Below are positions 3,912 to 9,855 of a stretch of DNA of 10,239 bases, piece by piece (position 1 is the first letter of the stretch; every line of letters begins with the position of its first letter). Position numbers and translations under genes: made by a program. The DNA is from a virus, in IMG/VR virus record IMGVR_UViG_3300012984_000442, positions 1 to 10,239 of that record. One strand, given 5' to 3'. The notes under the pieces are model-generated. The model did not search any database. It saw nothing but the letters and a program-made list of their open reading frames with translations, and was not told the origin of the DNA.

Positions 3912-4225
3912 AACTGATCCGAAGCAAGGTACCAGCGATTGCAGCCTCGAAAGGCGAGAGGTTACACACCCGACACGCTGGTCCCGAGGAACGATGGACG
4001 CTGCTCAAGGCCAAGCTCGTCGAGGAGGCACTCGAGCTGCAGGCGACTCCGCCTGCCTCAGAGGCTGAGATCGAGGAGATGGCAGACGTCATTGAGGTCG
4101 TCCGGCGCCTGTGTGACGACCTCGAGCTGTCTGAGCCTGGCAGGCTCGAGGCTGCGTATGCCAAGAAGCTCGATGAACGTGGTGAGCTTGGCTTCACTGT
4201 CCTGCTAGACGAGGACGAGAGGTGA
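3908..4225 (+). CDS. MazG-like / PRA-PH-type nucleoside triphosphate pyrophosphohydrolase (105 aa)
   Basis: The N-terminal KLIRSKVPAIAASKGERLHTRHAGPEE matches the KLVRDKIPEII..GE.. opening of the MazG-like/HisE-like all-alpha NTP-PPase family. Acidic EExxE / EExxD helices follow (LVEEALELQ..., EAEIEEMADVIEVV) and a C-terminal KKLDERGEL. The stop is coupled to the next gene by a GTGA overlap. Confidence 0.65.
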   Translation: MKLIRSKVPAIAASKGERLHTRHAGPEERWTLLKAKLVEEALELQATPPASEAEIEEMADVIEVVRRLCDDLELSEPGRLEAAYAKKLDERGELGFTVLLDEDER

Positions 4226-4464
4226 GGATCGTACCGGGAGACGTCGTTCGTGCTACCAACGGTTGGTCGCTATCAAAGCTGAACGAGGCCTTTCTTGGAG
4301 GTTCTCCTTGGGGAATGAAACTCGGCAACGACCTGTTAGTCATCGCCGTTCACAAGGAAGCATCTGACGATGGAGTGCCTGTCATATGCATACTGACCCA
4401 AACAGCAGGTCCCGTGTGGATCAATTTCGACAGTCGCACTGTCATGGTCAACGGCAGGAAGTGA
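4222..4464 (+). CDS. Small paralog B (80 aa), PGDxV beta-barrel-like family
   Basis: GTG start overlapping the previous stop (GTGA). MRIVPGDVVRATNGW.. carries the family signature, and the GC3-biased frame is consistent with coding. Confidence 0.55.
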   Translation: MRIVPGDVVRATNGWSLSKLNEAFLGGSPWGMKLGNDLLVIAVHKEASDDGVPVICILTQTAGPVWINFDSRTVMVNGRK

Positions 4465-4470
4465 GACGCG

Positions 4471-4776
4471 GTGGCCTGGGGCGACTTTGATAATCTCTAC
4501 AAGGACGACGACGTCGGCACCCGACGGGCGCTAGCGATCCAAAGTGGGTTCGTTCCTGGCGTCCTGATCAGGTACGGGTCTGGGAAGAAGCTCTTCACGG
4601 TATGGTACGGTCCTGACTTCAAGTCTGATTGTTTTGCTTCATTTCCTGGCGTCGCGATCGTCGTCAACGTCGACTGTGAGTCAGATCCCATGAATGACTG
4701 GCTATTCGTGTTCATCAACACGCCAGAGGGACCTGTGTTCGGATGGCTGCCAACAGAGCTGGTGAAGAAAGCATGA
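4471..4776 (+). CDS. Small paralog C (101 aa)
   Basis: GTG start 6 nt after the previous stop. Contains ..GFVPGVLIRYGSGKKLFTVWYGP.. (family-like PGxxV motif). The stop overlaps the next ATG (ATGA). Confidence 0.5.
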   Translation: MAWGDFDNLYKDDDVGTRRALAIQSGFVPGVLIRYGSGKKLFTVWYGPDFKSDCFASFPGVAIVVNVDCESDPMNDWLFVFINTPEGPVFGWLPTELVKKA

Positions 4777-5132
4777 CGACTGACAAGCTCCCACCGTATC
4801 CACCCGTCTTCGAGCCGGGTGACCTTGTCCAGTGCACGGGCGTCGAGTTCCCTCCAAACTCTGGTAGGATCAAGTCATGGCTCGGCCTGTTCCAGGAGGT
4901 GGGTTACCCAAAGTCAGTTGCTGGGTTACCCGTGAATCAGATGGACAAGGTCCTGAACGAAAAACTCGTCGGCACTGTCCAGAACGGCGAGTGGTGCCTC
5001 GTCGTGGCCGCTCAGTATTGTCAGACAGACGCTAAGTGGTACTACTTGCTACGAGGCGCGGGTTTTAAGAAGGGTTTTGGGTGGACACGAACGTCCATCA
5101 GGTTGAAGCTGGTCAGCAAGGTAGTTCCATGA
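4773..5132 (+). CDS. Small paralog D (119 aa)
   Basis: ATG 4773 is chosen over the longer track ORF (4743) because it forms an ATGA overlap with the upstream stop. MTTDKLPPYPPVFEPGDLVQCTGV.. carries the family motif. Confidence 0.55.
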   Translation: MTTDKLPPYPPVFEPGDLVQCTGVEFPPNSGRIKSWLGLFQEVGYPKSVAGLPVNQMDKVLNEKLVGTVQNGEWCLVVAAQYCQTDAKWYYLLRGAGFKKGFGWTRTSIRLKLVSKVVP

Positions 5133-5437
5133 GCTACAAGCCTGGGCAGACAATTTACTTTGAGAGCCAGAGCCTGTACCCAGAGATCGCTATCTCTCAA
5201 GACCTCATCGAGCTCAAAGGCATCGCTGTCAGGCCGAATTGTTTTGGTGACGCTCTCGTCATCGCCACGCATCCTGGTCCGGTTCAAACGCAGGTCATGA
5301 TGGCAAGGTACAGCAAACTAAGCAAAAAGGTGACTCGCGCTTACGCCCTGATGCTGTTGTTGCCCAACGGACAGGTGGGTTGGATCGCCACTGAGAACGA
5401 GAACTACCCTGTCGTGACGAGCGAGGTGGAACCGTGA
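5129..5437 (+). CDS. Small paralog E (102 aa)
   Basis: ATG 5129 forms an ATGA overlap with D's stop. Begins MSYKPGQTIYFES.. (PGQ variant of the motif). Confidence 0.5.
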   Translation: MSYKPGQTIYFESQSLYPEIAISQDLIELKGIAVRPNCFGDALVIATHPGPVQTQVMMARYSKLSKKVTRAYALMLLLPNGQVGWIATENENYPVVTSEVEP

Positions 5438-5667
5438 TCCTGGCGGGCGACCTGGTCAAGAACGCTCACTACCTGAGCATAGATCTGGTCTTGATGAGAA
5501 ACAAGCCCAGGCGGAACGACGTCTGGAACGAGAACGACGTGGCCGCGGCCTTCCGGTGCCGTGACGTCGGCCTCGTCATCTTCAGTGACGCCCATTGGTC
5601 ATTGGTCTTTGCTTTGAACAACATCGGTTGGACCCGTACCGAGTACCTCAAGAGGCTGGGCTCATGA
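5434..5667 (+). CDS. Small paralog F (77 aa)
   Basis: GTGA overlap. Begins VILAGDLVKNAHYL.. (AGDLV variant). Confidence 0.5.
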   Translation: MILAGDLVKNAHYLSIDLVLMRNKPRRNDVWNENDVAAAFRCRDVGLVIFSDAHWSLVFALNNIGWTRTEYLKRLGS

Positions 5668-8314: not shown

Positions 8315-8571
8315 CGCTTAAGACAAAGAAGCGGCTTCACCAGCAATCAGTCAACTCGAAACATTCATGGCGCGTTGGTGAACTATGTACTGCAGTCTAT
8401 GATAACCTGAGCGAGGGCGTCATCTATCGGGTCACCAAATCACCAGGTTTACATCGAGCGCTATTCACTCTACACATACGGTGTTGGGTATCACTCCCGT
8501 TTTTGGGGTCATCGTTGACATCGAGGGAAAGCGAACCCGAAACCTTGACACGAGATACTGCACGCCTCTGA
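8311..8571 (+). CDS. Paralog P (86 aa), Tudor-like signature
   Basis: ATGA overlap. SWRVGELCTAVYDNLSEGVIYRVTK resembles the Tudor-domain core (W-VGD-C-A-.-.EDG-.Y-A-I) and aligns with PGSMVFHREYDKSSYGMIIHV of Q. The 3' third overlaps an alternative-frame ORF (8481-8774), so the true C-terminus is uncertain. Confidence 0.45.
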   Translation: MTLKTKKRLHQQSVNSKHSWRVGELCTAVYDNLSEGVIYRVTKSPGLHRALFTLHIRCWVSLPFLGSSLTSRESEPETLTRDTARL

Positions 8572-8643
8572 CGCTGGTCGACCTAGGCGTCGCATACATG
8601 AATTTCGGGATGTTCATAGCACAACAAGCCAAGGGACCAGGAG

Positions 8644-8898
8644 ATGATGTCGAGAAGGGAGACGCAGAGGATGTTCCCGCCGGGAGCGATGGTGATATCA
8701 AAGAGCAATCTCAAAATCTCGCTGATCGTGGGCTACGCACCGATCCCACCACAAACATCCAAGAGCGGCCGTGAGATATCACCCGCGTCTTGGGAGGCGC
8801 TTGTCCTGAGCTCGACAGGGACGTTCAGGACAGTCTTTTGGGCATCGCTGGACAACGAATTCTACACTGTTGACTTTTGGAAGAACCTACAAGAGTGA
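8644..8898 (+). CDS. Paralog R (84 aa; start uncertain, possibly ATG 8671)
   Basis: Contains ..RMFPPGAMVISKSNLKISLIVGY.. with the family motif. The stop couples to Q's GTG by a GTGA overlap. It is preceded by an atypical 72-nt gap in this frame. Confidence 0.45.
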   Translation: MMSRRETQRMFPPGAMVISKSNLKISLIVGYAPIPPQTSKSGREISPASWEALVLSSTGTFRTVFWASLDNEFYTVDFWKNLQE

Positions 8899-9212
8899 CG
8901 CTCGAACAACACGTCTTAGATGAGATCTGTGCTATTGGGCGCTGTTACGGCGACAAGAAGCAACTAACACCAGGGTCGATGGTTTTCCATCGTGAGTACG
9001 ACAAGTCGTCGTATGGCATGATCATCCACGTTGACGACACGAACGTCACGGTGTTATGGACGCGAGAACCCAAGACGTCAGGCTTTGACTTCAGGGCGCT
9101 AGCGATGCCGCTCGCTCGACCAATCGGGTTTGCTAAGATCGCTCGTCAGTTGATCCAGGTCGATGAGTTACCAACGGGAGCTCACGTGTTTTACGCAAAG
9201 GACGAAGAGTGA
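8895..9212 (+). CDS. Paralog Q (105 aa), PGSxVxH...VLW subfamily
   Basis: GTG 8895 forms a GTGA overlap and is in frame with the track ORF 8877. ..TPGSMVFHREYDKSSYGMIIHVDDTNVTVLWTREPK.. aligns with O, T and S. Confidence 0.6.
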   Translation: MTLEQHVLDEICAIGRCYGDKKQLTPGSMVFHREYDKSSYGMIIHVDDTNVTVLWTREPKTSGFDFRALAMPLARPIGFAKIARQLIQVDELPTGAHVFYAKDEE

Positions 9213-9502
9213 GCCAGCTTCAGACGTACGAGTCACCAGCGCACTACTAGGTCGTAGAGCTTGAAGGGAACAGCGGTGCAATCAACCTGAGTCCAGGCTC
9301 GTTGGTGCGGCACGAGGACTTCGAGGGAACGAAGGGGATGCTGATCTCGAATGGGAGCGACTCTCTCGTCGTGTTGTGGTCTGTTCCCCCGCCAGGTCCC
9401 ATCTTTGTCGGTGAGGAGGCCATGATAAGAGACATCCAGAACGAGATCGACGCTGACATCATCAGCATTCTCAGAACACAAGCGAGAGCGTGGCCCAAAT
9501 GA
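9209..9502 (+). pseudogene. Paralog T with in-frame amber (TAG 9248-9250): nonsense-disrupted member of the MSQLxTY.. subfamily
   Basis: GTG 9209 forms a GTGA overlap. It reads VSQLQTYESPAHY*VVELEGNSGAINLSPGSLVRHEDFEGTKGMLISNGSDSLVVLW.. in a single frame. Both sides of the TAG align with O and S (the TAG aligns with the T/A in DILTIE / DIVAIE). The downstream part is intact up to a coupled TGA stop. Confidence 0.55.
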
Positions 9503-9855
9503 GCCAGCTCGCGACGTACGACCTGCCTGACATCCTCACGATCGAGGTCGACAAGCACAACGTTCCCGTCTATCCCAACCCGGGGACGCTCGTCAAACAC
9601 AAAAGCGATCTCAGTTCGCTGGGAACTTGCATCTCACGTCACTGGGGACCTGACGACAAGCCCATGCAGGTCACGGTCCTATGGGCAAAACCGCCGCGAA
9701 CGTTCTCAAACGTCATTTTTCCGAAGGTTCGTAAAACGTCGCCGACTTTGCTTGCTAACCAGCTCGTCAGCGTCCAACCGATGACTGCACCCGCTGGCGG
9801 CATCTTTTACATGAATTACACGTATGGTTCAGGCTCGAACGGCGGCAAGGTGTAA
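9499..9855 (+). CDS. Paralog S (118 aa)
   Basis: ATG 9499 forms an ATGA overlap. MSQLATYDLPDILTIEVDKHNVPVYPNPGTLVKHKSDLSSLGTCISRHWGPDDKPMQVTVLWAKPP... The first ~24 nt are nearly identical to T's 5' end at the DNA level. The stop is TAA. Confidence 0.6.
   Translation: MSQLATYDLPDILTIEVDKHNVPVYPNPGTLVKHKSDLSSLGTCISRHWGPDDKPMQVTVLWAKPPRTFSNVIFPKVRKTSPTLLANQLVSVQPMTAPAGGIFYMNYTYGSGSNGGKV

Follow-up and report, generated by a model that had tools for sequence, protein, structure and literature searches.

What are the many tiny, tightly packed genes that fill most of a viral DNA stretch from IMG/VR record IMGVR_UViG_3300012984_000442, and do they form one family? Positions 1 to 10,239 of this record, called the window here and analysed as a whole, carry a dense run of small open reading frames (ORFs) along 4222-9855. 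A preliminary description, made from the letters without database searches, had read this run as about 18 tandem paralogs of a single family recognizable by a PG motif near the N-terminus. Most of the products are true tandem paralogs, but the 19 ORFs comprise two unrelated families and three orphans. The paralogs of the array proper, family 1, number at least 58 in 28.7 kb of one strand. In our reading, whose probability we put at roughly 55%, they are small binding modules that arose by lineage-specific expansion within the accessory region of what is most likely a jumbo phage, and they are probably directed against host or rival targets.

Family 1 members recognize each other in profile searches and extend far beyond the window. 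Pairwise searches inside the window link A13, A17, A18 and A19 (E 1e-11 to 1e-4) and weakly join a few other pairs. Clearer copies of the family 1 pattern lie upstream of the MVP homolog whose 3' part opens the window. An iterative hidden Markov model (HMM) seeded on nine of these upstream paralogs recruited 31 proteins with leave-one-out scores of 11-48 bits, above the ceiling set by 1092 shuffled or reversed decoys (best ≤9.9 bits), and 26 more members were found further upstream (13-38 bits). The total of at least 58 (11-53 bits) was counted on a 28.7-kb stretch merged from fetched contig pieces. Within the window, A01, A02, A03, A04, A06, A08, A09, A12 and A14 are secure members (11.7-24.1 bits), A05 and A07 are probable and A11 is possible when ortholog alignments are compared with hhalign, and A10, A15, A16 and U4 fall outside the family (hhalign 0.3-2.3%). 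The mutual similarity expected of paralogs is thus present, while the array boundaries first proposed turn out to be artificial.

The PG motif alone does not delimit family 1. A13, A17, A18 and A19 form a second family, which the family 1 HMM scores at ≤4.5 bits; what the two have in common is a 12-column PGxxV strand (hhalign 1.3%). A third family of small paralogs starts just past 9855 with D1 and has a further member at L007:18884-19288 and more copies in IMG/VR relatives; a protein at L007:18586 may be a distant member (probability 28%). Families 2 and 3 reach hhalign probabilities of 1-20% against family 1. Because they share only the PGxxV strand with it, the motif of the preliminary description merges at least two unrelated families. 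All motifs listed there are present in the sequence, although the SPGSLV of A18 lies 5' of the first usable start codon.

Family 1 has no significant match in Pfam, PHROGs, NCBIfam or PDB, and no match among 50,697 GenBank phages. Scans of the window proteins with Pfam, PHROG and NCBIfam returned nothing for families 1 and 2 except a capsid motif in A19. A HMMER scan of 1.84 billion representatives yielded about 16 small proteins at E≤1e-3, ten of which are this phage's own, and the other six, on other contigs, look by sequence like orthologs in related phages. A word-indexed homolog search with a 32-paralog profile (E≤1e-3 and E≤10) found only the phage's own proteins and one truncated ortholog. 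P0035, a related sequence of 205 amino acids (aa), contains two family 1 domains in one polypeptide (34 bits each); the domain therefore exists in tandem-fused form too.

The family 1 domain combines a conserved core with variable loops and surfaces. It spans about 75 aa with the hydrophobic strand pattern PGD-h-V, L-W, L-V-I, h-h-L-L, G-x-G-W/Y-V and a final L. P8 and G9 of the motif are 98-100% conserved among the 58 paralogs, and beyond them only hydrophobic residues of the five or six short strands are conserved. Insertions and deletions are restricted to six loop sites, where up to 19 residues are inserted; the remaining surface varies freely, and isoelectric points range from 4.2 to 10.1. 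This strand pattern is that of a small beta-barrel, in agreement with the SH3/Tudor/KOW-like fold first suggested, but the SH3-like assignment itself draws on recurrent sub-threshold matches. Four of the 58 members match SH3_2 (best E 0.0076) and one matches SH3_3; every other Pfam family is matched once, and all matches lie below threshold. SH3_2/SH3_3 is the only Pfam family or clan matched by more than one member. SH3 domains also make up three of the top four entries in a PDB profile search (4krt, 2kq8 and 2ega, E 0.1-0.9, sub-threshold), and the truncated ortholog carries a PF07653 (SH3_2) match on record. Several multi-repeat matches among the 1.84 billion representatives are GW or SH3_3 proteins whose repeats align to the last two strands. 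On these recurrent matches we consider an SH3-like barrel likely.

Family 1 paralogs are old and individually maintained. No two are more than 45% identical, typical pairs are at 20-25%, and the window members are the most diverged, with best partners at 25-32%. Identity declines only faintly with distance along the array (from 0.235 to 0.19), which argues against recent tandem duplication. We compared the window with a syntenic NCBI metagenome contig (L028, ~75-86% DNA identity, MVP 86% identical). For 13 of 14 array ortholog pairs the ratio of nonsynonymous to synonymous substitution rates (dN/dS) is 0.13-0.33; the synonymous rate is saturated for A17 and synonymous sites are near saturation elsewhere too, so these values are rough. 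The neighboring SPFH gene gives 0.05. By these substitution patterns the small ORFs qualify as real genes, each under purifying selection. Family 1 also adjoins MVP in relatives of 35-62% GC. Its presence at 35% GC, together with the decoy scores, rules out that the motif arose by GC-driven chance.

Gene content is nevertheless still changing. A co-occurring strain (L011) lacks a 2-kb block of nine family 1 genes (merged contig 2712-4700, L010 coordinates), and the deletion junction is a 50-nt stretch common to two paralogs, indicating unequal recombination within the array. Family 1 copy number thus still changes by recombination between paralogs. L028 differs in gene content too, lacking A04, A06, A09, A14 and A15. 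In family 2, codon 14 of the 97-aa A18 gene (GTG at 9209, coupled to A17) has mutated from CAG to the stop codon TAG, and A18, judged from this codon, is truncated or inactivated in the window strain.

The window comes from the genome of an uncultivated soil phage, an origin that the preliminary description did not recognize. Its sequence is identical to part of a 33.5-kb soil-metagenome contig, and six further assemblies hold near-identical contigs (98.8-99.9%), the longest of 40.8 kb. Fourteen IMG/VR viral contigs, reaching 309 and 359 kb, carry relatives of its MVP (37-70% identity); others (38-40% identity) lie on 'uncultured phage' records LR756500-LR756503 (462-735 kb), and one on a 175-kb contig binned with a Clostridium metagenome-assembled genome. 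Phage origin follows from the near-identical soil contigs, from the MVP relatives on viral and huge-phage records, and from the T4_Y16D and capsid-protein motifs. A megablast search of the whole window against GenBank phages gave zero matches. The viral contigs of relatives measure 115-309 kb, and by their size of up to 309 kb the source is most likely a jumbo phage, its own longest contig being 40.8 kb.

The merged 28.7 kb holds about 90 genes in a single unbroken + strand run; their products are no longer than 200 aa except for MVP, SPFH and a methionine aminopeptidase (Peptidase_M24). Pfam matches on record for the genes called there are MVP, Band_7, DUF4314, T4_Y16D, the Gp23 motif, Peptidase_M24 and a weak ATPase. 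The T4_Y16D-family protein (L007:5349-5636) sits among the paralogs upstream of MVP. A block of small genes, all on one strand and most of them translationally coupled, extends over at least 28 kb, and 4222-9855 forms its downstream end.

Gene organization suggests expression in few transcripts. The + strand is coding throughout the window, with 21 small genes (U3, U4 and A01-A19) across 3726-9855. As first described, 4222-9855 consists of 19 consecutive + strand ORFs of 77-159 aa. Exact ATGA/GTGA start-stop overlaps support their translational coupling; 13 of the fourteen originally counted fall within this interval, while the 14th is at U3/U4 just upstream. A terminator-like hairpin stands upstream of U3, and no sigma-70-like promoter was found on the coding strand inside the array. 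The motif TGATAGGATGAGAGC lies directly before the U3 ATG (3711-3728, +) and recurs before D1 (9871-9888), giving the consensus TGATAGGATGAG(A/G)(G/A)C ahead of both start codons, and TAGGATGACTGG (6681-6695) precedes the A10 ATG. TAGGAT occurs exactly 6 nt before a start codon at three of its nine sites in the 28.7 kb, at the few uncoupled genes. The motif of the TGATAGGATGAGAGC type is probably a Shine-Dalgarno site (AGGA, 7-nt spacing) forming a strong ribosome-binding site, and possibly a promoter element instead. We also considered TAGGAT as the -10 box of leaderless mRNAs and set this aside, as a Shine-Dalgarno site fits equally well or better.

A repertoire of binding modules with different partners would account for this conserved core with its variable loops and surfaces, for old and individually conserved paralogs, and for polycistronic expression. 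Family 1 would then supply small SH3-like modules that share a stable scaffold but have each come to bind a partner of their own, and a few polycistronic units of the accessory region would express them together. The modules would most likely bind host or competing-element proteins and neutralize or redirect them in host takeover or counter-defense, and MVP and SPFH would be neighbors within a variable region rather than obligate partners. Several observations weigh against this interpretation. In its C-terminal half the profile matches not only GW/SH3b but also FG-GAP_2 repeats, so the SH3-like signal may reflect a beta-hairpin motif rather than homology. The AlphaFold model of family 1 is poor (predicted local distance difference test, pLDDT, 57.5; 13-sequence alignment). 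Selection with dN/dS well below 1 acting on ancient paralogs is unlike a fast arms race and fits a stable division of labor at least as well. The related proposal of an immunity-protein array found no backing: the Pfam matches on record for the genes of the 28.7 kb, on which this statement relies in place of a scan of our own, include no toxin, secretion, defense or other conflict domain.

Family 2 offers a different view, since one of its members ends in a segment resembling a major capsid protein. In the AlphaFold model of A19, residues 1-70 form five strands (pLDDT 78-89), confidence drops after residue 70 and falls below 50 from residue 93 (93-118). The beta-domain model has no significant structural neighbor. 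Residues 68-113 match positions 3-48 of Pfam Gp23 (PF07068, E 2e-10) as well as phrog_138 and T4 gp23 residues 96-134, are 50-63% identical to residues ~80-125 of capsid proteins of 540-610 aa in IMG/VR, and carry the conserved capsid motif RRxxPxLIAxQLVSVQPMxxPxGxIFY. By sequence the tail reproduces the N-terminal part of a mature major capsid protein of the T4 type. With 118 aa and 46 contiguous positions covered (3-48 of 376 in the model), A19 is not a full-length HK97-fold capsid protein. The tail, predicted to be disordered, is conserved in the homologs P0011-P0020, diverged in A17 and absent from A13 and A18. Such a tail may serve to dock onto a T4-type capsid lattice or to interfere with it. 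Attempts to connect family 2 to DUF4314 (PF14192; hhalign 0.5% for A13 and A19) or to families 1 and 3 (no hhalign link) failed.

The small proteins could accordingly be virion-associated, as decoration, cement or internal head proteins, with family 2 docking on the capsid lattice through its tail and the conserved N-terminal segment MSQLxTYDxP..I.IE acting as a T4-type capsid-targeting leader. The close match of the A19 tail to real capsid proteins, its retention in homologs, a disorder prediction that suits a docking peptide, and DNA-level conservation of the first 22 nt of family 2 genes all speak for this. It covers family 2 alone, however, and clearly just the A19 type, as the tails of A13 and A18 differ. 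In the AlphaFold model the N-terminal segment is part of the beta domain (pLDDT 82-87) and hence not a free leader. Family 1 has neither such a tail nor such a leader, some 58 different decoration proteins are implausible, and the genes lie among small accessory genes instead of in a structural module. A virion role for the array is therefore an explanation we hold to be improbable, though the strongest of the competitors.

The array could alternatively serve the vault and flotillin homologs beside it. The phage encodes a full-length MVP homolog of 898 aa (L007:7219-9915), directly preceded by a DUF4314 protein (L007:6934-7161) whose orthologs also precede MVP in L014 and L021. In a cage of this kind the paralogs would be a set of cargo proteins or adaptors recruiting clients to an MVP shell or SPFH assembly. 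Family 1 genes flank MVP on both sides here, and the eight IMG/VR loci whose MVP is 63-70% identical all have family 1, with 1-9 ORFs inside 10 kb and at 35-62% GC, while seven of them have family 2 as well. None of the eight loci with an MVP 37-44% identical carries either family, and their neighborhoods consist of ordinary larger genes. SPFH adjoins MVP in one of the eight close loci (L017) and in the closer NCBI contig L028. The linkage to an MVP/flotillin pair noticed at the outset thus holds among close relatives and, being limited to them, is not obligatory; it is a feature of one clade. A terminator-like hairpin also separates the SPFH gene from the array, library scans of the window proteins detected no known vault-interaction domain, and the array is so large that any gene inserted there would seem linked. 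MVP gives the impression of a passenger within a large variable region, and we regard an adaptor function as unlikely. Still less probable is the full picture of phage vault/flotillin cages with at least 58 SH3-like adaptors, each bringing a different client, and with family 2 plugging into the capsid lattice; if true, the virus would encode a novel type of sorting system that draws on a combinatorial binder library.

The identity of the closest SH3 matches raises a further option, namely cell-wall-binding modules of the SH3b/GW type that attach to peptidoglycan or teichoic acids and modulate lysis or exclude superinfection. The structures 4krt and 2kq8 represent SH3b domains, one from a phage endolysin and the other from a cell-wall hydrolase, and amidases with GW/SH3_3 repeats match as well (P0031). 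These matches are non-significant and confined to the last two strands; by eye, with no signal-peptide predictor run, the 58 members have no signal peptide, lipobox or catalytic fusion, and proteins that stand alone in the cytoplasm would have no access to the wall until lysis. We hold such a role to be very unlikely. The least probable explanation by far is an artefact of spurious ORFs or base composition: the genes are very short and devoid of database annotations, and the GC-rich sequence creates long shadow ORFs on the other strand, but the called frames are under selection, profile scores far exceed the decoys, family 1 persists at 35% GC, and start-stop overlaps with Shine-Dalgarno-like sequences are consistent throughout.

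Coordinates of the genes and of the hairpin are collected in Table 1. Some further observations concern the smaller genes. Every run of family genes is headed by small hydrophobic proteins: two precede the first upstream run (L010:783-1177), U3 precedes A01 and A10 precedes A11. This pattern may be coincidence. A perfect 17-nt inverted repeat (6559-6575 and 7014-7030, 438 nt apart) brackets A10, one arm lying inside the A09 gene and the other inside the A11 gene, both in coding sequence. Chance alone predicts about 0.001 repeats of this kind; the repeat is kept in near-identical strains, and its first arm is absent from L028, which lacks A09. The window contains no tRNAs, Rfam families or relevant DNA-level repeats. 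U4 was considered as a MazG-like pyrophosphatase and dropped for want of support in Pfam, NCBIfam or PDB searches.

Table 1. Features of the 10,239-nt window. Bit scores are from the family 1 HMM; hhalign values are probabilities against family 1 unless stated otherwise.
Feature	Positions	Strand	Evidence
MVP homolog, 3' part (last 536 codons of 898 aa)	1..1699	+	Pfam MVP_shoulder E 1.3e-30, Vault_3, Band_7; full gene L007:7219-9915
SPFH/Band_7 (flotillin-like) protein, hydrophobic N-terminus	1785..3638	+	Pfam Band_7 E 3.7e-28; dN/dS 0.05 vs L028
Terminator-like hairpin, 13-bp stem, between SPFH gene and small genes	3657..3689	+	
U3, 61 aa, core apparently hydrophobic, first gene of the block	3726..3911	+	
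U4, 105 aa, apparently helical, unassigned to any family; coupled to U3 and A01	3908..4225	+	hhalign: outside family 1
A01, family 1	4222..4464	+	leave-one-out 22.8 bits
A02, family 1	4471..4776	+	leave-one-out 11.7 bits; direct phmmer link to L007:3177
A03, family 1	4773..5132	+	leave-one-out 19.4 bits
A04, family 1	5129..5437	+	leave-one-out 17.7 bits
A05, probable family 1, AGD instead of PGD	5434..5667	+	11.1 bits; hhalign 95.7%
A06, family 1	5664..5912	+	15.8 bits
A07, probable family 1, match confined to N-terminal half	5909..6199	+	7.3 bits; hhalign 91.8% over 40 columns
A08, family 1	6180..6428	+	19.7 bits
A09, family 1, missed by gene caller on source contigs	6425..6688	+	15.5 bits; P0033 and P0036 at 50-51% identity
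A10, 85 aa, two hydrophobic segments, small membrane protein, non-member	6693..6950	+	
A11, possible family 1	6937..7242	+	6.7 bits; hhalign 44%, E 2e-4
A12, family 1	7252..7500	+	24.1 bits; hhalign 95.3%
A13, family 2, C-terminal part long and different	7497..7976	+	blastp E 3.6e-11 to A19
A14, family 1, two PG motifs	7973..8314	+	16.5 bits
A15, small protein outside both families	8311..8571	+	hhalign 0.9%
A16, small protein outside both families, conserved orthologs; alternative start 8644	8671..8898	+	dN/dS 0.17; hhalign 2.3%
A17, family 2, capsid-protein-like tail diverged	8895..9212	+	
A18, family 2, broken by in-frame TAG at ~9248-9250	9209..9502	+	allele intact (97 aa) in L002 and P0018
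A19, family 2, 118 aa: beta domain 1-70, capsid-like tail 68-113	9499..9855	+	Pfam Gp23, phrog_138
D1, 5' part of 165-aa protein, third small paralog family	9886..10239	+	hhalign 100%, E 9e-39 with L007:18884

If the count holds genome-wide, family 1 is among the largest single-family gene expansions in bacteriophages known to us, and it would show how a virus can naturally turn one minimal scaffold into dozens of variants. Such repertoires are a good place to seek inhibitors of host processes or defense systems as well as compact binding scaffolds, and the capsid mimic in A19 could be a handle on capsid assembly or phage-phage interference. Full-length homologs of the vault protein are documented in phages by these contigs; our literature search found no paper describing MVP in phages, and vault-like proteins have been reported in archaeal Borg elements (bioRxiv 10.1101/2024.11.05.622173). 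The present value of the locus lies in a well-defined, testable family rather than in a mechanism.

Long one-strand runs of small, fast-evolving, strain-variable accessory genes are familiar from large virulent phages: T4-like phages have them in polymorphic internal-protein loci and in small early-gene clusters, SPO1 in its host-takeover module. There the genes are a mix of unrelated ones, whereas family 1 makes up most of the genes here. Immunity and anti-defense arrays beside polymorphic toxins share tandem, diverged small paralogs with family 1, but the window belongs to a virulent-type phage genome and not to a cellular conflict island. The SH3b (SH3_3) and GW domains of endolysins and autolysins resemble family 1 in length, in the order of hydrophobic strands and in the C-terminal hairpin 'W/Y-x-h-h ... 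G-x-x-G-W-V ... L'. Family 1 differs from them in its N-terminal PGDxV strand, which lies outside the SH3b models, in the lack of a significant match, and in being standalone and non-exported with no enzyme attached. T4-type gp23 shares with A19 only a capsid segment, fused there behind an unrelated small beta domain, which makes A19 a mimic or fragment and not a capsid protein.

The closest parallel is the zinc-ribbon expansion of Bacillus phage G, where about 35 copies were called unprecedented (Iyer et al. 2021, PMC7824862). Both cases present many tandem, diverged copies of a tiny domain in a very large or, here, most likely very large phage, with a presumed binding or regulatory role. Family 1 differs in its all-beta, probably SH3-like domain, in its at least 58 copies within 28.7 kb, in belonging to no database family, and in that nearly every copy is a standalone gene with a 4-nt overlap to the next. 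It is thus a new protein family within an already known phenomenon, the expansion of small domains in large phages.

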